NCBI GenBank assembly: GCA_963771175.1
Contig: CAVYSY010000038.1
Location: 64,001-128,000 of the forward strand
DNA from: an uncultured delta proteobacterium
GTDB lineage: Bacteria; Myxococcota; Myxococcia; Myxococcales; Myxococcaceae
DNA: 64,000 nt
Reading direction: 5' to 3'
In this document: positions 29,879 to 41,657 of the stretch, in pieces
How positions within the stretch are numbered: the stretch's first letter is position 1
Layout of the letters: the number at the start of each line of letters is the position of its first letter
Notes under the pieces: generated by a model
The model's database searches: none
What the model saw: the letters and a program-made list of their open reading frames with translations, nothing else
Told to the model about the DNA's origin: nothing
Made by a program: the position numbers and the translations under genes

Positions 29879-31563
29879 CTACCGTGGGAACGGCGAGCGC
29901 TCCTCGGCTCCCGCGAAGGCGATCAGCGCGCCCGCGGTGGCATGGGCATCGCCCTCATCGGAGTCCGTCCCCGTCGTGCCATCCGACAGTCGACCCTCGG
30001 ACTGCTGGTGCCTGACGAGCAACGTCCAGGAGGGCCTCGTGTGCGCCGCCTCCGGCCTCACCCGCGCACTGGAGACAGAAGGCCACCTCCGCCGCCAGGT
30101 CCACATGGCCCTGCTCCACCAGCCAGGGGGTGGCCACCAGCAACTCCTCCGTCCACGCCGCCGCGCGCGAGTCCCGGAGCGGGGCGCGCAGGTAGTGGGT
30201 GTCCAGCAGGTACAGGTGCGTGAGCCAGTAGAGGTCCACCAGGTGCGACATGTCCCGGTAGGCGCGCTCGGGGACGAGCAGGCGCACGTCCAGTCCACAC
30301 GAGGCGGCCATCTCTCCCAGCAGCCACGCATGGATGCCGTGGCCCTCGTCGTCGATCGACTCCAGGTAGGCGCGCAGGGCGGACGGCTCCAGGGGAGCGT
30401 GAGGCAGACCCCGCTCGCGGCGCACGTACCAGGCGTCCACCCGGGCCATGCCCACCTCGGGATCCAACCCGGGAGGAAGCGCCAGGGGGACCTCCGCCAG
30501 CGCGGCCACCGCCGACTCCAGTGTGGGCCCCAACCCTCGCCGTGCGAAGGCGCCGGGCGCGTGACCCTCCAGCATGTGCAGCGTCAGCGCGCGCAACGCC
30601 CGTGCCTCATCTCCCTCGCCCTCCGTCAGCGAGAGGAAGGCCCGCAGTGCGCGATCCACCTCATCCGTCCTCGGGGAAGCCGGAGGCGAGGGAGGCCCCG
30701 ACAGAAGGAAGAGGGACGTGGCATCCCGGGTGAAGGCGGGGCTACCGGGCATGTCGTGCACCGCGTCCGCCAGCACCGCGCTCGCGGCCGACGCGGCGTG
30801 CAAGGCCCGCGAGTAGCGCTCGCGGAAGGTGCGTCCCTCCACCTCCACGCGGTAGCGGTCCAACCGCCGGGCTCCGGCCTCCGCGGCGAGCGCGGCCTGA
30901 TGCCCACTCTTGAAGGTGAGGACGAGTGGCACGTCCGGGGGCGGCTCCACCGGCCGGACCGGCAGTGCGGCGGCGCGGGTCAGCTCCGCGAGCACCTCCT
31001 CGGAGGAACGCGAGCGGGCCCGCGTGACGGAGAGGGCCACCTTGGTGTGCACATACCCCACGCGGCCCTCGAGCCCCGCTTGCAGCACGTCATCTCCCGG
31101 AGACGAACACCGCCGGCACCCCGGCCTCCGCCGCGAGCGCCAGCACGAGGTCCGCCTCCGACAGGGCCCGGCCGGCGCACGTCCACGCGCCGAGCACGTC
31201 CACGGTGTGCGCACCAAAGCCCGCCGAGCCAGCCGCGGCATGCATGCCCACACAGGCCACCGCCTGAACGTCCTCGAAGACTTCCGGTGCGTACGCGTCC
31301 TCGGGGAGGAAGCAGGGCTCGGCGGCGGGGTGTAGCGCCTCGGGCAGCAGGTTCATCTCGCCGGAGCCGGACAGGTGGCTGTCACTCACCCGCACCCGCT
31401 GGAAGCCGGCGGCGAGCAGGCCCTCGACCGCGGCGTTCACCTCCGCCGTCAGGAGGGCCTGGGCGCGTCCGTACTCAGGAGTCCCGGAGATGAGCGCGCC
31501 GGGAGTATCCACGCCGGCCACGCCCTCGAGGTCGATGATGAGCAGCGCCCGGCGCGAGGTCAT
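29879..31563 (-). CDS. M55 (DppA D-aminopeptidase-like) metallopeptidase with a long C-terminal extension; frameshifts near 31095 and 29990
   Basis: IDLEGVAG, EVNAAVEG, SDSH, GMHAAAG, HT and VFVSGDD motifs; extension with YWLTHLYL..DLAAEVAFCL. Confidence 0.7.
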
Positions 31564-31572
31564 GGCGCTCGG

Positions 31573-32052
31573 CTACTTCCTGGGAGCACTGGGGCCACCC
31601 GATTTGATCCACTTCGCCAGCGCGAGCGCCGTGGGCTGGTCGATGAGCGAGGCATAGGTGGGCATGGTGGTGCCAGGGACGAACTGCTCCGGGTTGCGAA
31701 TCCACTTCGCCAGGTCCTGCTCGGATTTGGCGGCGGCCTGGGTGATGCGATCGTGGTAGCGGGCACCCGGGGCGTGGCACAGCGCGCAGCCCAGCCGAGC
31801 GAAGAGGGCGGAGGGGTCCACCTCCTTCTTGGGCTCGGCCTGCGCGAGGAGGAGGTCCGCGAGCAGCGCGGGCGCGGAGGTGCGCACGGAAGCGCCGGGC
31901 TCCACGGCCTCGAAGGACACGGAGGCGGGCGTCACCTGGGCCACCGGAGCACTGGCGGAGAAAGTGGTGTTGGCGACACTCGCGCACCCGGACAGCAGGG
32001 CACTGCCCGCCAGCAGGGTGCCAGACACGGCGCTCAGGACTCGTCGGTGCAT
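31573..32052 (-). CDS. c-type cytochrome lipoprotein
   Basis: Lipobox LSGC, heme motif CALCH, WIRNP..PGTTMP axial Met. Confidence 0.85.
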   Translation of the reverse strand: MHRRVLSAVSGTLLAGSALLSGCASVANTTFSASAPVAQVTPASVSFEAVEPGASVRTSAPALLADLLLAQAEPKKEVDPSALFARLGCALCHAPGARYHDRITQAAAKSEQDLAKWIRNPEQFVPGTTMPTYASLIDQPTALALAKWIKSGGPSAPRK

Positions 32053-32353
32053 CCGCTCACGCCCTCCGGAGAAATCCAGAATGCCGCAACTCAGGGTTCA
32101 AGGGTAGACACCCCCGTTCGTCTGGAGCCCAGCCGAGCGCGCGCCGGGCTGGAGCGTGGAGTCCACGAAGGTGCGCGGATCCACCACCGGACACCACCGG
32201 GGACCCGAGGCATTTTCGTGACGCCCCCTCCAGGCGCAGGGGATATATGGGGGGGGGTAACAAGGACGCCGGCGGTGTCCGCCAGGCAACACCCTTTGTT
32301 GCCCTTCCGGGGGCCGGCCCCAGCCGACACCCCGCCTCCAAGTTGGTACTGCC

Positions 32354-33019
32354 ATGAAGACCGAGTACGCGCGCCACGCTTCCGGGCGGATGTTCGAAAA
32401 CAACTTCCTCGAAGCCTGCTCGAAGATCCACCCGGCCACTCCGTTCGCCTTCTACATCCCCATCATCACCGGCCTGCTGGCATGGAGCCTATGGAGCGGG
32501 ACGACCCGCGTGGGGATGGTCGCCCTGTTCGCCCCCTTGGGGTACCTCACCTGGTGCTTCATGGAGTACACGCTGCACCGCAACCTCTTCCACTGGGAGG
32601 GAAACGGGCCGCTCACCCGGCGCTTCCACGCCATCATCCACGGCTACCACCACACGTACCCGGATGATCCGCAGCGGCTGGTGATGCCCCTGGGGGCGAG
32701 CATCCCGCTGGCCATCGTCGTCAGCGGACTGCTGTGGCTGGTGGGCCGGCCGGACGCCACGATTCCCTACTTCGTCGGCATCGTCGTCGGCTACCTCGCC
32801 TACGACTACCTGCACTGGGCGGTGCACTACAAGAAGCCGTGGACCAACTGGGGCAAGGCGCTGCGTGCGCACCACATGGCGCACCACTTCGCCTGCCCGG
32901 ACAAGAATTTCGGCATCAGCCACCGGTGGATCGACCGGATGGTCGGCTCGATGCAGGTGCGCGGGCAGGCGGCCCGCGAGTCGGCGAAGCAGGGCGCCGA
33001 CTCCACCGCGGCGGAGTAG
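32354..33019 (+). CDS. fatty acid hydroxylase / sterol desaturase family (FA2H-like)
   Basis: His boxes EYTLHR..FH, HGYHH, YDYLHWAVH, HHMAHHF; RLVMP. Confidence 0.9.
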   Translation: MKTEYARHASGRMFENNFLEACSKIHPATPFAFYIPIITGLLAWSLWSGTTRVGMVALFAPLGYLTWCFMEYTLHRNLFHWEGNGPLTRRFHAIIHGYHHTYPDDPQRLVMPLGASIPLAIVVSGLLWLVGRPDATIPYFVGIVVGYLAYDYLHWAVHYKKPWTNWGKALRAHHMAHHFACPDKNFGISHRWIDRMVGSMQVRGQAARESAKQGADSTAAE

Positions 33020-33046
33020 TCCCGCCGCGGTGAACCGGGGCATGGC

Positions 33047-34189
33047 CTACGGGTGCGCGGGAGCCGACGCCGCCCACTGCCAGGCGGTGCCCCGGTGCAG
33101 GGCGGCGTAGATGATGTCCCTCAGCTCGTTGCACTCGGAGTGGGTGAGCGAGCGGTCGAGCGCGCGCAGCACCACGCGCAACAGCACGTTCTTCTGCCCG
33201 GGTGAGATGCCGAGCCGCTTCACGGCGGCGGGAGGCAGCGCCTCACAGGGCGTCTCCGAGAGTACCTCGACGGTCTCCACCATCTCGGCCCGTGAGCCCA
33301 GGGCGGCCCGAACCCCATCTCCGAGCTCCTCGGAGGTGGCGTCGCCCTCGAGCACCAGCGACAAGTCACGACGCACCTCGGGCATGGAGGACACCTCGCG
33401 GTACGGCTCCAGGTCGAGCATCTGCGAGGCGATGCGTGGCTCCTCTGCGCGCAGCAGGCGGATGTCATCGAGGCCCTTGCGCAGCATGAGGATGCGATCC
33501 ATCCCGAGCCCCATGGCGAGCCCCGAGGTGCGCGCCGTGTCCAGCCCGCTGTCGGCGAGCAGCGCCGGGTTGGCCAGGCCGCACTCGCCGATCTCCACCC
33601 ATTCGGCTCCGTGGCGGACGTCGATCTGGAGCCCATCGGTGGTGTACGGGTGCTGGGCGGGAGTGATGCGCGGCTCGCGCCCGGGGAGCAGGGCGCGCAC
33701 CACGGTCTCCACCATGAGGCGCAGCTCCTCGACGCCGAGCGGCGCGCCCGTGCGGATGCGCCAGAGGTCCATCTGGTGGGGCTCGCCGGTGTGCAACCGG
33801 TCGATGCAGTCGCGGCGGTAGACGAGCCCGGGACAGGCGAGCAGCACGTCCTCGGGAGACTGGGGTACGGCGGCGAGCTGGCGCAGCAGCGGCGGAATCA
33901 TCGCCGAGGTCTGGGTGCGCAGCAGCGCGGTGTCACAGACGTAGCGGGTGTAGCGGGCATCGCGAGCGGCGCCCTCGGGCGGGTAGCGCAGCCGGTCGTA
34001 GTTGTCGGCGACGGAGACGATGGGGCTCTGCCGGTGGAGGCGCACGTCGCAGCGCCACGCGAGGCGCAGGGAGGAGAGCACGTCATCGATGAGGCGCTGC
34101 ATGGCATGAGGGCCGGCAGCGGGGTCGGTCAGGTCACGAATGGACAGGGCACGGCGGACAGCATCGGTGCTGAGAATGCAGACGGACAT
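33047..34189 (-). CDS. monomeric PheRS-like class II ligase (PheS-type catalytic domain plus FDX-ACB domain; resembles the 'PheS-related mystery ligase' family)
   Basis: NYDRL, LLRTQTSA, motif 2 VYRRDCIDRLH..PHQMD, HPYT, WVEIGECG, motif 3 GLAMGLGMDR, DDIRLL, RRDLSL (start of FDX-ACB), DRSLT..E.N. Confidence 0.85.
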   Translation of the reverse strand: MSVCILSTDAVRRALSIRDLTDPAAGPHAMQRLIDDVLSSLRLAWRCDVRLHRQSPIVSVADNYDRLRYPPEGAARDARYTRYVCDTALLRTQTSAMIPPLLRQLAAVPQSPEDVLLACPGLVYRRDCIDRLHTGEPHQMDLWRIRTGAPLGVEELRLMVETVVRALLPGREPRITPAQHPYTTDGLQIDVRHGAEWVEIGECGLANPALLADSGLDTARTSGLAMGLGMDRILMLRKGLDDIRLLRAEEPRIASQMLDLEPYREVSSMPEVRRDLSLVLEGDATSEELGDGVRAALGSRAEMVETVEVLSETPCEALPPAAVKRLGISPGQKNVLLRVVLRALDRSLTHSECNELRDIIYAALHRGTAWQWAASAPAHP

Positions 34190-34340
34190 GGGAAGTCTCT
34201 CGGACTGGAGTGGAAGGAAACGGCTCCAGGTGACGCCCGGTCCTCGAGGGGAGGAGCTGGCGCCACCACGCACGGCGCCCCCCGAACCCCTGGTCCAGGC
34301 GAGCGTCACGCCGAGAGGCGATCCGCCGAGAGAGAACGGG

Positions 34341-34421
34341 CTAGCGACGCAGCACGGCCTCCCTGAGCCTGGTGGGGCTCGGGGGGCGGCTAAATCGACG
34401 CTGGCACGTGAGGAGAAGCAT
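34341..34421 (-). CDS. putative leader peptide MLLLTCQRRFSRPPSPTRLREAVLRR (26 aa)
   Basis: ATG at 34421, 10 nt after a -10 box; in-frame TAG at 34341; overlaps one arm of an alternative RNA helix. Confidence 0.55.
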   Translation of the reverse strand: MLLLTCQRRFSRPPSPTRLREAVLRR

Positions 34422-34431
34422 CGCGGTCAGA

Positions 34432-34460
34432 AAGGTAAACGCGGTTCGGGCCGAATGCAA
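34432..34460 (-). promoter_or_regulatory. putative sigma-70 promoter
   Basis: TTGCAT-17 bp-TACCTT on the minus strand, directly upstream of the leader ORF. Confidence 0.6.
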
Positions 34461-34472
34461 TCCGGGCCCCGC

Positions 34473-35036
34473 TCAGACCTCGACGAAACGTGTGCCGGTG
34501 ATGCCCTCCTGCTCCATGGCCAGCTTGAGATCCTCGGAGATGATGAGGGCCACGCGCCAACCCCAGGGGCGGAAGATATGCGCGTCCCCCACCTTCGTCG
34601 GGTCGATGCGCAGGCCCGAAACAATCCGGTACTGTCCTACCTTTTCTGGCTCATCATCCTCGGGCGTCCAGAGCACCACCCGTCTGCTCCCGGCCTCGTC
34701 TACGCAACGAGTGATGCGCAGCGCATTGAGGATGAAATAGGGCGCCTCGTGCCCCTCCACCCGAGCAGGAATGAACTGCACATCCTGGACACGTAGCCGC
34801 TCGAAGATCTGAACGACGCGGCCATGGACGACGGGGATGGAGAAGGCGGCCCAGCAGTAGTCCAGCGAGTCTCCGGGAATGTCGAGTGGGAATCGCGGTA
34901 CGCACCCCAGCTCGAGCACCCTCCCATCCTTGAACTGCCAGGGGTCGAGTTCCTGCCCCTGCTCGTCGACAGGAGTTCCCAGATGCCACCGCGTATGGGA
35001 TTGCCTGTCGTCCATCAGCTCGAAATACCGGGTCAT
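34473..35036 (-). CDS. Imm11/DUF1629-like immunity protein, copy A
   Basis: RWHLGTP..DPWQF..DVQFIPARV..YFILN..RC.DE..LRIDP..IFRPWGW..LIISE; directly downstream of an AHH toxin. Confidence 0.8.
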   Translation of the reverse strand: MTRYFELMDDRQSHTRWHLGTPVDEQGQELDPWQFKDGRVLELGCVPRFPLDIPGDSLDYCWAAFSIPVVHGRVVQIFERLRVQDVQFIPARVEGHEAPYFILNALRITRCVDEAGSRRVVLWTPEDDEPEKVGQYRIVSGLRIDPTKVGDAHIFRPWGWRVALIISEDLKLAMEQEGITGTRFVEV

Positions 35037-35053
35037 GCGCTTCGCTCCCATTG

Positions 35054-36367
35054 TCACCAGGTCTTCGTCGCCCACCGATGGAGCGAGGACCCCGGAGTAC
35101 ATACCTCGTCCGCCAGCTCCTTGAGTGTTCGCACCAGCTTGCTCTTGCATTGTGAAACGGTCTGGCAGCCACGGAGTGCTGCTTCTAGCCTTTGCATGAC
35201 CTCCGTATGGTATTCCACCGGGTGAGGACCCTTGTGGCCCTTGAGGTAGACGAGGTTCTCCGCTGCGTCCAGGCTCATCCCCGCCTTGGCGAAGAGCTTC
35301 TCGAACAGGGGCGTCCACGGCCCACCGGACTGCGTCGAGGTTTCGTTCTTGTTGGTGGCGAGGTGGTGCCAGTGGTGGCCGTCCTTCTTCTCGGAGCCAT
35401 CGGTGCACGCGCTGCCCACCGCGGCAGCCGCCGTGCCCGCCGCCACTCCCGTGACGATGATGGTGCCATCCGCCGCCATCTGCACCGTCGTCGCCCCCGC
35501 CACGGACAGCCCCTCGGCCATGGCGTACCGGGGAGGCCCCAGCAACGCGCCCAGTCCTCCCTCGGGCACCTGGGGCAGCCCCCTGGCGAGCCCCATGCTG
35601 GCCACCACCATCAGCACCCGCAGCCCCGTGCCTCCCATCGCCTTGCCGAAGCGCTCCGCCGCCGCTTCGAGCTCCTGCACCGTCCTGGCCGCCTCCGCTT
35701 CCTCGTACAGCCGCAGGCACGCACGGGCGAAATGGGTGAGCTCCAGCGCCCCCACCACGAAGGCCAGTCGCAGCGTCAATGCCGTCACGAAGGCCTTGCT
35801 GAACAGCGGCTCGGGCACCAGCCACGCCCCGAAGTACACCAATACCGACAGGGCGACACTGGACAGGAAGACGGGCGAGGAGAACAACTCCTGGGCCGCC
35901 TCGCGCACTCCCGCGCCCATGTAGCGGGGAGAGAGCTTCAGGGCCAGGAAGAGGCGGCTCTGCTCCAATGACCGCGGCATGGGTAGCAGCGGCGGGCCAA
36001 ACCGGGACACGTACTCCTCCCGCAGCCGTGATTCCCACTCCGCCGGCTGGCCTTCTCCCGCCCCAGCCGACACCAGGACGAACCGGGGCCGAGACCGGGG
36101 CCTCTCCGTCAGTCGGAAGGACTCATGGAAGGCCGCGAGGACCGTCCGCGCCTCCTGCACCCTCAGTCGCTCCAGGACCGGGTCAGGGGCCACCGGCTCG
36201 AAGTCGAGCCGCAATGCGCCACCAGACAGCTCACTCGCCCTCACCGCGCTCGGCTCCGCCTGCTGTCTCCGCTCGGGAAGCGGCCCCTCCGGCGATGTGG
36301 CGCACGAGAGGGGCAACAGCAGCAACAGGGCCATGGCCATGCGCGGCAAGGCAGAAGCTCTCTTCAT
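35054..36367 (-). CDS. polymorphic toxin lipoprotein with C-terminal AHH nuclease (SitA-like), copy A
   Basis: Lipobox PLSC; hydrophobic mid-region; WHHLATNKN, GGPWTP, ENL and GHKGPHP.EYH motifs. Confidence 0.8.
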   Translation of the reverse strand: MKRASALPRMAMALLLLLPLSCATSPEGPLPERRQQAEPSAVRASELSGGALRLDFEPVAPDPVLERLRVQEARTVLAAFHESFRLTERPRSRPRFVLVSAGAGEGQPAEWESRLREEYVSRFGPPLLPMPRSLEQSRLFLALKLSPRYMGAGVREAAQELFSSPVFLSSVALSVLVYFGAWLVPEPLFSKAFVTALTLRLAFVVGALELTHFARACLRLYEEAEAARTVQELEAAAERFGKAMGGTGLRVLMVVASMGLARGLPQVPEGGLGALLGPPRYAMAEGLSVAGATTVQMAADGTIIVTGVAAGTAAAAVGSACTDGSEKKDGHHWHHLATNKNETSTQSGGPWTPLFEKLFAKAGMSLDAAENLVYLKGHKGPHPVEYHTEVMQRLEAALRGCQTVSQCKSKLVRTLKELADEVCTPGSSLHRWATKTW

Positions 36368-36453
36368 GACGCGGCAGCATGCACGGTCCTCGGTTGTCGC
36401 ACCATGCGGCCGAGTCTACGCACCGCCTTGAATTTCAAGGTCATCGCGTTCGC

Positions 36454-37017
36454 TCACACCTCGACGAACCGGGTGCCGGTGATGCCCTCCTGCTCCAGGG
36501 CCTGCTTGAGGTCCTCTGAGATGATGAGGGCCACGCGCCAACCCCAGGGACGGAAGATATGCGCGTCCTCCACCTTCGTCGGGTCGATGCGCATCCTGTG
36601 GACAACCCGGTACTCCCCCAACTTGTCCGGGCGATTGTCCTCGGGCTTCCAGTACCGCACTTCCGCGCACCGGGCGTCATCGATGCATCGGATGATTCGC
36701 AGGGCATTGAGAATGAACCGGGGCTCCTCGTGGCCTTCCACCCTGGCGGGGATGAACTGCACATCCTGGACACGTTGCCTCTCGAAGATCTGCACGATGC
36801 GTCCATGGACCACGGGGATGGAGAAGGCGGCCCAGCAGTAATCCAACGCGTCTCCGGGAGTGTCGAGCGGGAAGCGAGGCACGCACCCCAGCTCGAGCAC
36901 CCTCCCTTTCTTGAACTGCCAGGGGTCGACTTCCTGCCCATGCTCATCGACAGGAGTTCCCAGATGCCACCGTGTGTGGGATTGCCTATCGTCCATCAGC
37001 TCGAAATACCGGGTCAT
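36454..37017 (-). CDS. Imm11/DUF1629-like immunity protein, copy B
   Basis: Paralog of 34473-35036 with the same length (564 bp) and a diverged central segment. Confidence 0.8.
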   Translation of the reverse strand: MTRYFELMDDRQSHTRWHLGTPVDEHGQEVDPWQFKKGRVLELGCVPRFPLDTPGDALDYCWAAFSIPVVHGRIVQIFERQRVQDVQFIPARVEGHEEPRFILNALRIIRCIDDARCAEVRYWKPEDNRPDKLGEYRVVHRMRIDPTKVEDAHIFRPWGWRVALIISEDLKQALEQEGITGTRFVEV

Positions 37018-37037
37018 GCGCTTTGTCCCCAGCTCCT

Positions 37038-38488
37038 CTAGGTCTTCGTCACCAACCGATGGAGTAGGGACCCTGGAGTGCATACGTCATCTGCCAACGT
37101 CCTGAGCTCTTCCACGAACCTGCTCCTACATTGTGAAACGGACCCACAGTCCTCGAGCGCCTCCTCAAGCCTCCGGAAGACCGCCGCATGATACTCCTCG
37201 GGATGGGGCCCCTTGTGGCCCTTGAGGTAGATGAGGTTCTCCGCTGCGTCCAGGCTCATCCCCGCCTTGGCGAAGAGCTTCTCGAGCAGGGGCGTCCACG
37301 GCCCACCGGACTGCGTCGAGGTTTCGTTCTTGTTGGTGGCGAGGTGGTGCCAGTGGTGGCCGTCCTTCTTCTCGGAGCCATCGGCGCACGCGCTACCCAC
37401 CGCGGCAGCCGCCGTGCCCGCCGCCACACCCGTGACGATGATGGTGCCATCCGCCGCCATCTGCACCGTCGTCGCCCCCGCCACGGACACCCCCTCGGCC
37501 ATGGCGTACCGGGGAGGCCCCAGCAACGCGCCCAGTCCTCCCTCGGGCACCTGGGGCAGCCCCCTGGCGAGCCCCATGCTGGCCACCACCATCAGCACCC
37601 GCAGCCCCGTGCCTCCCATCGCCTTGCCGAAGCGCTCCGCCGCCGCTTCGAGCTCCTGCACCGTCCTGGCCGCCTCCGCTTCCTCGTACAGCCGCAGGCA
37701 CGCACGGGCGAAATGGGTGAGCTCCAGCGCCCCCACCACGAAGGCCAGTCGCAGCGTCAATGCCGTCACGAAGGCCTTGCTGAACAGCGGCTCGGGCACC
37801 AGCCACGCCCCGAAGTACACCAAAACCGATAGGGCGACACTGGACAGGAAGACGGGCGAGGAGAACAACTCCTGGGCCGCCTCGCGCACTCCCCGCGCCC
37901 ATGTAGCCTGAGCCAGGAGTGCATAGATCGTCTGCAATCCTCTTGAGCTCATCAACGAGGCTGCTCCGTCATTGTGCCATGGTCTGGCACCGTGACACTG
38001 CAATCTGAGCCAGCGATAGATTTCCGGGGAGAGGACGCTTCAGGGCCAGGAAGAGGCGGTCTCCGCTGCGTCCAGGCTCATGACCGCGGCATGGGTAGCA
38101 GCGGCGTAGGCCAAACCGGGACACGTGAGTTCTCCTCCCGCAGGCGTGATTCCCACTGGCGGCCGGCCTTCTCCCGCCAGCCGATACAAGACGAACCGGG
38201 GCCGAGACCGGGGCCTCTCCGTCAGTCGGAAGGACTCATGGAAGGCCGCGAGGACCGTCCGCGCCTCCTGCACCGTCAGTCGCTCCAGGACCGCCGGTCA
38301 GGGGCCACCGGCGAAGTCGAGCCGCAATGCGCACCAGACACTCACTCGGGCCCTGGCAGCCCCTGGCGCTCGGCTCCGCCTGCTGTCTGCCGCTCGGGAA
38401 GCGGCCCCTCCGGCGATGTGGCGCACGAGAGGGGCAACAGCAGCAACAGGGCCATGGCCATGCGCGGCAAAGCAGAAGCTCTCTTCAT
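37038..38488 (-). pseudogene. AHH toxin lipoprotein copy B; 5' part disrupted (real decay or assembly noise)
   Basis: Nearly identical to copy A over ~37210-37900; ~118-bp unrelated insert at 37908-38025 and many indels at 38025-38400. Confidence 0.65.
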
Positions 38489-38538
38489 GACGCGGCAGCA
38501 TGCACGCCCCCGCACTGCCGCGTCATCCGATGCCGCGA

Positions 38539-39177
38539 CTACCGCGTCCCGAAGAGCCGATCTCCCGCGTCACCCAGACCCGGGAGGATGTAGCCGTGCT
38601 CGTCGAGCTTCTCATCCACCGCGGCGGTGAAGACGTGCACGTCCGGGTGGTGCTCGCGCAGGTTCGCCAGACCCTCGGGGCACGCCAGCAGGCAGACGAA
38701 ACGCAGACTGCCCGGCTTGTTGCGCTTGATGCGGTTGAGCGCCGCCACCGCCGAGTTCCCCGTCGCCAGCATCGGGTCGCACACGATGACGTCTCGGTCC
38801 GCGAGCTGGTTCGGAACCTTGTAGTAGTACTCCACCGCGCCCAGCGTCTTCGGGTCCCGGTACAGACCGATGTGGCCCACGCGGGCGCTCGGCACCAGTT
38901 GCAGCATGCCGTCCAGGATGCCCTGGCCCGCGCGCAGGATGGCCACCAGCACCAGCTTCTTTCCATCCAGCACCGGCGCCACCGTCTGCATCATCGGCGT
39001 CTCGATGGTCTCCTCGCGCACCTTCAGGTCCCGCATCGCCTCGTAGGCGAGCAGCAGGGAAATCTCCTGCAGCAGCGCGCGGAAGGAAGCCGTGCTCGTG
39101 TCCTTGCGCCGCATCAGCGTCAACTTGTGCTTCACCAGTGGGTGGTCCACCACCGTGCAGTTTTCCGGGTACGTCAT
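38539..39177 (-). CDS. upp: uracil phosphoribosyltransferase
   Basis: [47 protein letters not shown]. Confidence 0.95.
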
Positions 39178-39220
39178 GGCTCCCTCCTTCGTCGACTCGA
39201 CTGAATAGAAAAGAAGACCT

Positions 39221-40411
39221 TCAGAACACCGTACCGTCGCTCTCGATGCGGATGGGCGGCGTGCCCCCCTTCCGCTTCTCCGCGGCGATGCGCCTCCCGG
39301 CGCTCCACGTCCCCCCTTGCAGCACCTTCGCCAGCGGCAGCTCCTCCGCCGTCATTCCCAGCCGCTCGCGCACCCGCTTCGCCACCTCGTCCAGCAGCGC
39401 CACCGTCAGCGCCCGCCACTCCACGATGGGCTCCGCTCCCGGCGCGAAGGCGTCCGTGAGCAGCCGCGAGTCCCTCGGAACCAGCAGGCCCAGGTCCACC
39501 AGCAGCCCGCCATTGCGGTACTCGGGCAGCCCCGTCAGCGCGTCCAGGTCCGTCACCTGGATGCCGCCTTCCTCCAGCGGCTCCAGCAGCGAGTACGTCA
39601 GCCACTGCGACAGCTTGTGGAAGGGCACCAGCGACTCCGGGCTGCCCTCGGCCCCCAGCGCCGAGTGCGACCACACGTCGCCCAGGTTCACCCCGTCCAG
39701 CGTGATGCGCCCCGGCCAGATGGAGCCCAGCGACTCCAGCACCCGACCCAGCACCTCCGCCGCGGGCACTCGAGGACCCCGCGCCGCGAGCAGGTCGAAG
39801 AGCGCTCCGGGCCTCGGCAGCGCCTTCCCCAGTCCGCGCAACAGCGCGAGCCGTCCCTCCAGCCCCGCCAGCGGGTTGACCTCCGTCACCTGGAAGCCCC
39901 GCGCCAGTGCATCGAGGCTCAGCCCCTTCAGCCCCTCCGCGTCCGCGCGCAACGGTTGGCGTGGGTCCGAGGAGAACGCGCCCGCGAGGAACATGCGGAA
40001 GCTCGCCACGGCCAGGCCCTCGGAGCGCGCGTAGGTGTCACCACCGGGCTCCACGTACTTCCACGTGGGCCCGCTGCCCGCGTCCAGCAGTACGCTGGTG
40101 ACGACCAGGTCCAGCTTCGCCCGGGCCCGCTCGGCGGGTGGCAGCGAGGCCAGGCGCGCATCCAGCTCCGCGTTGCGCCGCACCCCCCCCACGTCGAAGT
40201 GCCCCCAGCGACTGTGCACGGGAATCGCCAGCGAGGGGTACGCCGCGCGGGTGACGTCCAGCACGTAGTCCGCCACGGCCGGCAGCCGCTCCATGTCCAC
40301 GCGGAAGTGCTTCAGCTTGCCGGCGAGCCCCAGCTCCAGCAGGGCCCGGCAGCGCTCGCGAATGGCTCGCGGGCTCCGCAGGTACGCGACGGTGGCGGAG
40401 GGCTCAGGCAT
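39221..40411 (-). CDS. URC4/urg3 family protein (DUF1688)
   Basis: [74 protein letters not shown]. Confidence 0.88.
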
Positions 40412-41657
40412 CGAGTGCCCTGCCCTTCACCTGCTCCAGCTCGTCCTTCGAGGCCACCTTGCCGTTGGTGAAGTAGCCGGCGGCCTTCTTCGCCTCCATC
40501 TCCACCTTGGCGTCGGCGGGGATGAGCTCCTCCGGGATCGGCACGCGCTCGAGGATTTCGATGCCCGAGCGGACGATGGCGTCGTGCTTCATGTCGCTCA
40601 TGGACACGAAGCGGTGGATGCGGGTGATGCCCAGCCAGTGCAGCGCGTCCGGCATCAGCTCCTGGAAGCGCATGTCCTGCACGCCCGCGACGCACTCGGT
40701 GCGGTGGAAGTAGGTGGCCGCCGAGTCGCCGCCCTCCTGCCGCTTGCGCGCGTTGTAGACGAGGAACTTCGTCACCTCGCCCAGCGCGCGGCCTTCCTTG
40801 CGCGAGTAGACGATGACGCCCGCTCCGTTCTCCTGCGCCGTCTGGATGCACACCTCGATGCCGTGCGTGAGGTACGGCCGGCACGTGCAGATGTCGCTGC
40901 CGAACACGTCCGAGCCGTTGCACTCGTCGTGCACGCGCACCGCCAGCGGCACGTCGGGGTCGGCGATGGTGTCCATGTCGCCGAAGAAGTAGAGGGTGAG
41001 CCCACCGATGGGCGGCAGGAACACCTCCAGGTCCGAGCGGGTGATGAGCTCGGGAAACATGCCGCCGGTCTGCTCGAAGAGCCCGCGGCGCAGCGCCGCC
41101 TCGGTCAGGCCGAAGCGCTTGGCGATGCCGGGCAGGTACCACACCGGCTCGACCGCGGCCTTCACCACGCTCACGTCGCCGTTGGCGCAGAGAATCTTCC
41201 CGTCCGGCTTGAGGCGGCCAGCGGTGATGGCGTCGCGCAGCTCGGGCATGTTGATGTGCGCGCGGGTGATGGCGATGGTGGGCCGGATGTCCATGCCCTG
41301 CTCCAGCAAGTTCCGGAAGGCCTGCGGGGCCACCGCCCCCCACGGGTCCATCGAGACGATGCGGTCGGGGTCCGCCCACGCCTTGTGGGGTCCAATCTGC
41401 ACGGCCGGCGCGGTGTTGGTGAGGTCCGCCCGGTGGTCCTGCGTGAGCTGCCCGGCGGCCACCGCGACGGCCCGGTAGATGGCATACGAGCCCGAGTGCG
41501 TGCCGATGACGTTGCGGTGCACGGGCTCCGTCAGCGTGGCGATGACGGGTCCCCGGCGCAGCGGCTCGGGCTCTCCCCAACGGATGGGGAGGGTCTGCGA
41601 GTCGCTATCCGGATGAGAGGTGAGACGGATGTGGTTGACGGGCTTCTTGTCGGACAT
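40404..41657 (-). CDS. GTP cyclohydrolase II-like protein of the URC1/urg1 type
   Basis: N-terminal RNVIGTHSGSYAIYRA; RVHDECNGSDVFGSDICTCRPYL; RKEGRALGEVTKFLVYNARK; EMEAKKAAGY. Confidence 0.88.
   Translation of the reverse strand: MSDKKPVNHIRLTSHPDSDSQTLPIRWGEPEPLRRGPVIATLTEPVHRNVIGTHSGSYAIYRAVAVAAGQLTQDHRADLTNTAPAVQIGPHKAWADPDRIVSMDPWGAVAPQAFRNLLEQGMDIRPTIAITRAHINMPELRDAITAGRLKPDGKILCANGDVSVVKAAVEPVWYLPGIAKRFGLTEAALRRGLFEQTGGMFPELITRSDLEVFLPPIGGLTLYFFGDMDTIADPDVPLAVRVHDECNGSDVFGSDICTCRPYLTHGIEVCIQTAQENGAGVIVYSRKEGRALGEVTKFLVYNARKRQEGGDSAATYFHRTECVAGVQDMRFQELMPDALHWLGITRIHRFVSMSDMKHDAIVRSGIEILERVPIPEELIPADAKVEMEAKKAAGYFTNGKVASKDELEQVKGRALDA

Follow-up and report, generated by a model that had tools for sequence, protein, structure and literature searches.

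SrmL, a phenylalanine-free single-chain PheRS-like ligase behind a Phe-codon leader, is a candidate backup phenylalanyl-tRNA synthetase

Results

SrmL has the fold of a mitochondrial-type PheRS

The DNA analyzed here, hereafter the window, is a stretch of 64,000 nucleotides (nt) from an uncultured delta proteobacterium of the Myxococcaceae (assembly GCA_963771175.1, contig CAVYSY010000038.1, positions 64,001 to 128,000). On its minus strand lies the gene of SrmL, a single-chain ligase resembling phenylalanyl-tRNA synthetase (PheRS), which contains no phenylalanine and is preceded by a short leader reading frame with a single Phe codon. The gene and the two domains of its product are located as follows, in window coordinates:

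33047..34189, minus strand: SrmL gene, encoding a 380-residue single-chain PheRS-like ligase without a Phe residue (open reading frame (ORF), NF051887 profile, AlphaFold model and fold match).
33422..34030, minus strand: class II PheS-type catalytic domain, residues 54-256, with R125 and R232 kept and H180, Y182, E202, D141, W143 and P137 changed.
33092..33391, minus strand: FDX-ACB anticodon-binding domain, residues 267-366, with D275 and S277 kept, the G34-reading Asp and Phe replaced, and a 12-residue insertion (residue roles as given in the accessible part of PMC8136816).

Residues 54-256 matched Pfam tRNA-synt_2d with 114.9 bits (cut-off 19.8), and residues 267-366 matched FDX-ACB with an E-value of 4.7e-7 and 30.6 bits, slightly below the 31.1 cut-off. 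The NCBIfam model NF051887 ('PheS-related mystery ligase SrmL') was covered from position 1 to 349 of 349 at 522.7 bits, compared to a cut-off of 300, and the close homologues, which come from Archangium and its kin, bear the SrmL name. The protein scored below cut-off with the profiles of bacterial PheS (TIGR00468; 109.7, cut-off 237.45) and of mitochondrial-type PheRS (TIGR00469, pheS_mito; 109, cut-off 258.35). An AlphaFold model built from a 51-sequence alignment (predicted local distance difference test score, 95.3; predicted template modelling score, 0.92) aligned over its whole length, about 408 columns, with human mitochondrial PheRS at a template modelling (TM) score of 0.76; this enzyme accounted for all of the top seven fold matches and also came first in a family profile search. 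SrmL, a catalytic domain fused to FDX-ACB, has the overall fold of mitochondrial-type PheRS; no editing domain was found by Pfam or fold comparison, and Pfam and the AlphaFold model revealed no PheS-type N-terminal coiled coil. An ESM Atlas search returned only the family's own clusters, and a Foldseek search of viral structure models only distant class II enzymes. A longer start, GTG at 34309 (420 residues), was considered and rejected; ATG at 34189 agrees with the homologues and with the position of the ribosome-binding site, and the extension would bring in the sole Phe of the protein.

An earlier interpretation of this DNA from its letters alone (the sequence-only reading) had proposed a 380-residue fusion of a PheS-like domain to FDX-ACB with no adjacent pheT, in the architecture of mitochondrial PheRS. 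The ORF, the Pfam domains, the gene survey of the window, in which no pheT was found near the SrmL gene, and the structural model bear out this description. That reading knew of no characterized function either, and SrmL is indeed a family known by name and without a known function: the name of NF051887 gives none, its description includes neither the leader nor the absence of Phe, and literature searches, outside which most subscription papers lay, found no paper on the family, its leader or its Phe purge.

SrmL is purged of phenylalanine

None of the 380 residues of SrmL is Phe, against 12.6 expected (P = 3e-6). Phe-free ORFs of 300-460 residues numbered one among 1353 in this genome, and that one resembles a non-gene frame. 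Phe was likewise absent from 172 of 223 relatives and present at most once in 196 of them (residues 5-369), and 111 of the 120 closest homologues had none. Within the catalytic domain, Phe makes up 0.8% of residues in SrmL compared to 6.7-7.1% in four other PheRS groups, and at each of the 19 columns where 60% or more of mitochondrial-type enzymes have Phe, SrmL has another residue. The PheS and PheT proteins of the same genome, for their part, contain 21 and 17 Phe residues. Low-GC and phage copies of SrmL are also purged (0 Phe in loci L115, L117 and L118); the SrmL of phage locus L116, which has no leader, has 6. A gene without a Phe codon could be expressed even when Phe-tRNA-Phe has run out, and the purge, active-site residues included, implies, as far as sequences tell, a state in which there would be almost no Phe-tRNA-Phe.

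A leader reading frame with a rare Phe codon precedes the gene

Eight further features were delineated upstream of the gene:

34432..34460, minus strand: promoter-like -35 (34455-34460) and -10 (34432-34437) elements, 17 nt apart and 10 nt before the leader start.
34341..34421, minus strand: leader reading frame of 26 codons, with one Phe codon at codon 10.
34392..34397, minus strand: CGA-TTT (Arg-Phe) codon pair, the predicted sensor.
34374..34388, minus strand: segment A, C-rich, its start 6 nt downstream of the initial T of the Phe codon; forms pairs with either B or D.
34358..34369, minus strand: segment B, G-rich, within the leader frame; a potential partner of A or of the anti-Shine-Dalgarno (anti-SD) segment (weak signal).
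34326..34335, minus strand: anti-SD segment right past the leader stop, a complement of the SrmL ribosome-binding site.
34276..34290, minus strand: segment D, G-rich, a 15-bp complement of A (-37.9 kcal/mol).
34196..34203, minus strand: likely ribosome-binding site (SD) of the SrmL gene.

Both sensor codons are rare in this genome, TTT accounting for 2.6% of Phe codons and CGA for 5.3% of Arg codons; in the window leader TTT stands directly after CGA, and a Pro codon follows three codons past TTT. A TTT..Pro frame was present upstream of SrmL at 86 of 93 genome loci, with the CGA-TTT pair at 71, compared to 3/93 reverse complements, 2/91 downstream regions, 4.8% of shuffles and 59/3142 upstream regions of this genome. 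The rules were set on these 93 loci and then used unchanged on metagenome loci, 69 of 80 of which had enough upstream DNA: the loosest rule was satisfied by all 69, TTT..Pro by 66 and CGA-TTT by 45, against 2/69 reverse complements, all of these counts overstating independence as the carrier loci are kin and some are near-duplicates. Four loci were missed by the loosest rule; three of them have a Phe-codon element on inspection (in one case after a stop), and L093 has none. The SrmL gene is the one site of the 9.8-Mb genome with the full pattern; a search of this genome for further CGA-TTT leaders with that pattern returned none. Rfam covariance models (T-box and known leaders) gave 0 matches at E up to 1 over positions 30000-39000, and NCBIfam gave no match to the leader. 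A frameshift from the leader into the gene was discarded as an explanation, the distance from Phe codon to gene not being constant modulo 3.

A TANNNT hexamer was found 4-10 nt before the leader start at 88 of 135 loci, compared to 3 in the control. This -10-like hexamer lies close to the leader start, and the leader therefore likely begins the transcript; a sigma-70 scan called no promoter upstream of it.

Two variations of the leader may be recorded separately. In loci L005, L006, L007 and L066, which have Anaeromyxobacter-type leaders, the sensor unit is in tandem, the first unit carrying the Tyr codon TAT and the second the Phe codon TTT. Phe-free SrmL also occurs without a leader (L093) or behind a leader with a stop right before the Phe codon (L082); these are possibly unregulated copies.

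Alternative pairings in the leader RNA

Pairing of A with D was found in all 84 scored loci, with a mean of -29.6 kcal/mol compared to -24.7 for foreign partners and -21.0 for shuffled ones. Over 113 de-duplicated loci, the set used for the pairing results below, the corresponding values were -26.1 for a locus' own partner, -22.6 for swapped and -18.4 for shuffled partners, and the SD:anti-SD pairing reached -16.5 against -12.2 and -12.1 (swapped and shuffled; 93/113). The A:B and B:anti-SD pairings exceeded both controls weakly, and D:E, D:M and SD:E did not rise above controls. Variable columns of A:D comprise G-C, C-G, A-U and U-A pairs; 74% of them pair compared to 51% with swapped partners, in 107 of the 113 loci that could be anchored and with the register picked for maximal pairing, which favours the observed value. 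When the leader part past the Phe codon was free, as opposed to removed, the ribosome-binding site became easier to open at 80 of the 113 loci and harder at 9, and its opening cost with the free own leader was 8.4 kcal/mol versus 10.2 and 10.1 with shuffled and swapped leaders. A further candidate, a hairpin of D:E or C:D conserved among high-GC leaders, was dropped, as it gave no signal above controls.

Two low-GC leaders look like classical attenuators. That of an Azotobacter plasmid has a 12-bp hairpin followed by a U-tract. That of phage LR745206.1 (635 kb; L118:9871-9975) consists of 16 codons, four of them for Phe and none for Arg, stands with an 11-bp hairpin and U-tract before a Phe-free SrmL, and has an end complementary to the 5' arm of its terminator hairpin. 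The design of the LR745206 leader differs from that of bacterial SrmL leaders.

The amino-acid pocket and the anticodon surface are remodelled

The substituted motifs HPYT (residues 180-183), EIGECG (199-204), PHQMD (137-141) and GMDR (229-232) and the kept ATP-binding arginines are all as the sequence-only reading had them, and the 223 relatives identify them as family traits rather than noise: H180 is conserved in 215, Y182 in 222, E202 in 217, D141 in 221, P137 in 212 and W143 in 222, and the motif 2 and motif 3 class II arginines R125 and R232, together with G204, are invariant (223/223). The homologues thus retain the HPYT and GECG substitutions. One of the changes turned out to be less special than thought, in that the Asp of motif 3 is also present in 3 of 22 ordinary PheS proteins and in that of Staphylococcus haemolyticus. 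Also kept in the family are S/T95, Q139, A225 (214/223), T183 (212/223), G227 and G229. The changes fall at Phe positions (H180, Y182, P137) and at non-Phe positions (E202, D141, W143, I98) alike, and H180 and E202 are linked, 214 of the 223 relatives having both, 5 neither and 4 one alone. Roles of the pocket residues in mitochondrial PheRS are described in the accessible text of PMC5521548.

From these substitutions the same reading had derived, as one of three options, an active ligase for a substrate other than Phe. According to the accessible parts of PMC3275996 and PMC8136816, the Phe, Phe and Gly of bacterial PheRS are replaced in human cytosolic PheRS by Asn410, Tyr412 and Asn434; the human enzyme draws its second aromatic residue from the opposite side of the pocket and still loads Phe. 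In our alignment these three residues occupy the positions of H180, Y182 and E202. Since the cytosolic enzyme loads Phe with the same three positions altered, HPYT and GECG alone do not imply another amino acid, and that option is weakened. W143 could be the second aromatic residue of the SrmL pocket, and Phe appears, on these comparisons, to be its likeliest substrate.

In the anticodon domain, an Asp and a Ser are described as contacting A36 and A35, and another Asp and a Phe as reading G34 (PMC8136816, accessible text); SrmL keeps the former pair as D275 and S277. Conserved residues of FDX-ACB include N334, R338 and R342 besides these two, and the insertion has its own (L318, P319, R325 and G327).

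A divergent, Phe-rich branch (P0206, P0219, P0245 and P0251) has lost H180, E202 and the D130/H133 loop and may be a separate paralogue.

SrmL is a second, patchily distributed enzyme

The sequence-only reading had asked for a canonical pheS and pheT elsewhere in the genome, and an ordinary pheS-pheT pair indeed lies on another contig, C46. Among 50 carrier genomes, corresponding to 50 of the 80 loci, pheT exceeded the cut-off in 47, was in pieces in two, and gave only a weak match in one, which has pheS. SrmL was carried by 14 of 201 genomes of the window's phylum, by 1 of 401 genomes around a Steroidobacter genome (the centre genome itself) and by 6 of 301, 4 of them over the cut-off, around a Streptomyces genome. 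It was further found on two plasmids and in four huge-phage records of 415-635 kb, in which it is the sole full PheS-like match. The spread of SrmL is thus patchy and mobile. In phage contig L115, tRNA-Phe genes are the nearest tRNA genes on either side of SrmL, among 17 tRNA genes in the locus, and the LR745206 phage has two tRNA-Phe genes elsewhere in its record. Across 83 loci no neighbour gene or biosynthetic cluster was conserved beyond close kin. A single-protein scan of viral contigs returned nothing, and the public RNA runs, which contained contigs only, in small shares, gave nothing on expression.

Three side observations concern carriers. In genome G000, an array of 13 tRNA genes (contig positions 380045-381301) includes, beside the ordinary tRNA-Phe, another and divergent tRNA-Phe(GAA), a possible second substrate. 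On the Glutamicibacter plasmid NZ_CP142605.1 (L120:6320-9101), SrmL and its leader adjoin a Cmx/CmrA chloramphenicol efflux gene, and a partial copy lies on a Corynebacterium diphtheriae plasmid.

Relationship to other PheRS lineages

A catalytic-domain tree of 80 rows and 220 columns was computed with a quick IQ-TREE run. It included no NPYT-type enzyme, as motif scans for cytosolic-type PheRS in viral contigs gave nothing usable, and neither did those for the strict mitochondrial motif. SrmL formed one clade (support 100) beside organellar and viral single-chain PheRS (Shimodaira-Hasegawa-like approximate likelihood ratio test, 99), nested near alphaproteobacterial PheS (97), and the viral mitochondrial-type single-chain enzymes branched at the base of the organellar group. 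Approximately unbiased tests did not reject placing SrmL with archaeal-type (p = 0.26) or with bacterial sequences (p = 0.15), and long branches meet at this point. A sister relationship of SrmL to mitochondrial PheRS is the placement that appears favoured.

Ordinary single-chain PheRS of the mitochondrial type, its FPFT unaltered, is encoded by viral contigs L221 (2171-3214), L222 (1793-2857) and L223 (1856-2866), two of which exceed 530 kb. Long archaeal-type PheS proteins with FPFT occur in some Myxococcota and a planctomycete (L129, L130, L230).

Genomic surroundings

The neighbours of SrmL in the window are unrelated to it: a convergent fatty-acid hydroxylase gene, toxin-immunity pairs and a P450. 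Directly upstream, at 34473-38003, lie two tandem pairs of AHH-nuclease (SitA5-like) toxin and Imm11 immunity genes, of which the first immunity gene seemingly spans two frames and the second toxin gene is a shortened one. An M55 D-aminopeptidase-like gene at 29955-31563 is seemingly split in two frames, its relatives being one ORF of 549 residues, and a run of GTP cyclohydrolase II-like, DUF1688 and uracil phosphoribosyltransferase genes occupies 38539-41657.

Discussion

We consider it probable, with modest confidence, that SrmL is a backup PheRS which loads Phe onto tRNA-Phe once Phe-tRNA-Phe collapses, probably since the normal enzyme is blocked. Under this scheme, the leader would be translated from a nearly leaderless message, and a shortage of Phe-tRNA-Phe would make the ribosome wait at TTT, codon 10. 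The remaining leader RNA, thereby freed, would sequester the anti-SD segment or, in certain lineages, disrupt a terminator; the ribosome-binding site would be released, and Phe-free SrmL would be made and would recharge tRNA-Phe. The pocket may accept Phe by another layout, a pair of His180 and Glu202 replacing two Asn of cytosolic PheRS and Tyr182 and Trp143 forming aromatic walls, and the changes at the sites for the amino acid and for adenine might let SrmL escape a putative blocker of the normal enzyme. Such resistance is suggested by the consideration that a Phe-loading spare is useful only if the normal enzyme, and not Phe, has failed. Of the three functions offered by the sequence-only reading, a backup synthetase has become the best explanation; a ligase for a substrate other than Phe and a modifying paralogue akin to EpmA or GluQ have both lost ground.

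A number of results weigh against this explanation. That stalling switches SrmL on is inferred from the architecture and from precedent, the folding results on direction being mixed. The predicted direction differs with the folding model and the ribosome state. Masks reaching to 15 nt past the Phe codon had no net effect compared to no ribosome (opening easier at 33 and harder at 32 of 84 loci). Opening was likewise eased when the ribosome was placed at the leader stop and A was left free (38 versus 9). The window's own leader has a small effect on the opening cost (6.1 to 4.6), no better than a shuffled one (3.5), and the terminators of L118 and L119 stay in every masked state in equilibrium folding. 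The kinship of the carrier loci, already noted, tempers the leader counts. As regards the enzyme, 20 Phe-rich relatives already carry H180 (14), Y182 (19), E202 (15), D141 (18) and W143 (20), so that the pocket changes were not forced by the Phe purge alone and have a reason of their own. The motif 2 Phe, which stacks on and anchors adenine according to the accessible text of PMC8136816, is Pro in 212 of the 223 relatives, and the G34-reading Asp and Phe are replaced by S311 and T313. No natural PheRS inhibitor or gene cluster was found beside the SrmL gene. Among the phages, L117 has tRNA-Val nearest to SrmL and tRNA-Phe second nearest, and two of the four, L116 and L118, have no tRNA gene near it.

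The same switch could also serve an enzyme that loads another amino acid onto tRNA-Phe in Phe starvation, Phe codons then being read with a substitute in a deliberate mistranslation that would let protein synthesis proceed. We hold this to be rather unlikely, even though a second Phe-loading enzyme would be of little help if free Phe itself is missing, and the changes at the non-Phe positions E202, D141, W143 and I98 are nearly invariant and found in Phe-rich relatives too. The single chain also has no editing domain, and mitochondrial PheRS is described in the accessible part of PMC3275996 as stably attaching Tyr. Against a substitute stand the kept gate residues A225 and T183 and the ability of cytosolic PheRS to take Phe despite non-aromatic, polar residues at these positions; spread by plasmids and phages would, moreover, be more readily explained by protection from a blocker than by starvation in general. 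Equally doubtful as a whole is the wider proposition that SrmL is a mobile rescue cassette of soil bacteria and huge phages, a mitochondrial-type Phe-free ligase, perhaps of a lineage sister to mitochondrial PheRS, that loads a substitute onto tRNA-Phe upon depletion of Phe-tRNA-Phe.

The replacement of the adenine-stacking Phe by Pro, the changed G34-reading residues, the conserved insertion in the anticodon domain and the phage copies next to tRNA genes would also fit an enzyme that protects, modifies or reactivates damaged or uncharged tRNA-Phe, using ATP in the class II site without ordinary aminoacylation. As the residues on the amino-group and carboxyl side (S/T95, Q139, the acid at 141 and R125) and the glycine floor are kept, and the entire two-domain fold matches a working synthetase, we regard such a role as improbable. 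A ligase for an unrelated target (a protein, another tRNA or a metabolite) in the manner of EpmA or GluQ-RS, with a leader that senses something else, for instance the arginine codon CGA or a drug that binds the ribosome, would account for the remodelled pocket and anticodon surface and for CGA before TTT in 71/93 and 45/69 loci. Yet it is the Phe codon that survives where CGA is lost, and the leader of the phage contains four codons for Phe but none for Arg. The protein itself has lost Phe and is nevertheless rich in Arg; it retains its anticodon domain, and no partner gene was found to be shared between taxa. The tRNA-Phe genes flanking a phage copy likewise weaken an EpmA- or GluQ-like role. 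A Phe-codon leader before a Phe-free protein points to tRNA-Phe rather than to an unrelated substrate, and we deem this last possibility very improbable.

With the backup PheRS as the preferred explanation, a named 'mystery' family gains a testable job. A bacterial and phage single-chain PheRS stripped of its own amino acid, active site included, would be, if true, a striking design for shortage. A resistant backup would mark an unknown natural blocker of bacterial PheRS, whether antibiotic, toxin or phage defence, and its leader would be a reporter with which to find that blocker; a substitute-loading enzyme would mean regulated mistranslation. SrmL further bears on the origin of mitochondrial PheRS and offers a small, divergent PheRS scaffold.

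Comparison with known systems

Mitochondrial single-chain PheRS (human FARS2, PDB 3CMQ; TIGR00469) is the best fold and profile match and the nearest tree group, and shares with SrmL the fusion of catalytic domain and FDX-ACB and the lack of an editing domain. The two are, however, only about 20% identical, FPFT, the Gly of the GCG type, the motif 2 Phe and the G34-reading Asp and Phe are replaced in SrmL, and SrmL is a second enzyme in its genome and not the sole PheRS. Single-chain PheRS, described as the organellar form, is called the only known monomeric class II synthetase in the accessible part of PMC3275996; in AARS Online, PheRS-M is the sole single-chain family given for Phe (PMC11580382, accessible text), and the accessible text of the review PMC7373986 names no PheRS paralogue of this kind. 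The alpha chain of archaeal and eukaryotic cytosolic PheRS (human, PDB 3L4G) resembles SrmL in its altered pocket, with Asn410, Tyr412 and Asn434 at H180, Y182 and E202, but belongs to an (alpha-beta)2 enzyme with Phe438 as second aromatic residue, where SrmL has Ala or Ile and Trp143 nearby. Paralogues of the EpmA and GluQ-RS type consist of the catalytic domain only, the anticodon-binding domain having been lost; SrmL, unlike them, has FDX-ACB with its conserved residues.

Biosynthetic enzymes needed in shortage are described as avoiding the scarce amino acid (cognate bias; PMC4209129, accessible text), and the bias is presented there for biosynthetic pathways, the term 'tRNA synthetase' not being used in the main text. 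Compared to this bias, that of SrmL is extreme and near-total, and takes out catalytic-site Phe too. Attenuators with cognate codons in a leader frame are described for pheST of gamma-proteobacteria and for trpS and leuS of Streptomyces in the accessible text of PMC1262725, a survey which there reports that the phenylalanine operons of Actinobacteria yielded no conserved element. Such classical synthetase attenuators have a run of codons in place of the one TTT of the SrmL leader, which usually lacks a U-tract terminator. Two traits of an auxiliary synthetase under leader control are present in SrmL: a housekeeping enzyme in the same genome, and an upstream frame with a cognate codon and alternative RNA pairings. 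Streptomyces coelicolor reportedly has, from work of Vecchione and Sello in 2010 and of Kitabatake in 2002, an auxiliary antibiotic-resistant TrpRS under ribosome-mediated attenuation, the inhibitor being indolmycin. Like SrmL, this enzyme is the product of a second synthetase gene behind a leader, and it is the nearest working model; it differs in being of class I, in its amino acid, and in a control named transcriptional, whereas most SrmL leaders point at the ribosome-binding site. What is new in the putative regulated auxiliary synthetase presented here is the combination of a Phe-codon leader with a Phe-free sequence.

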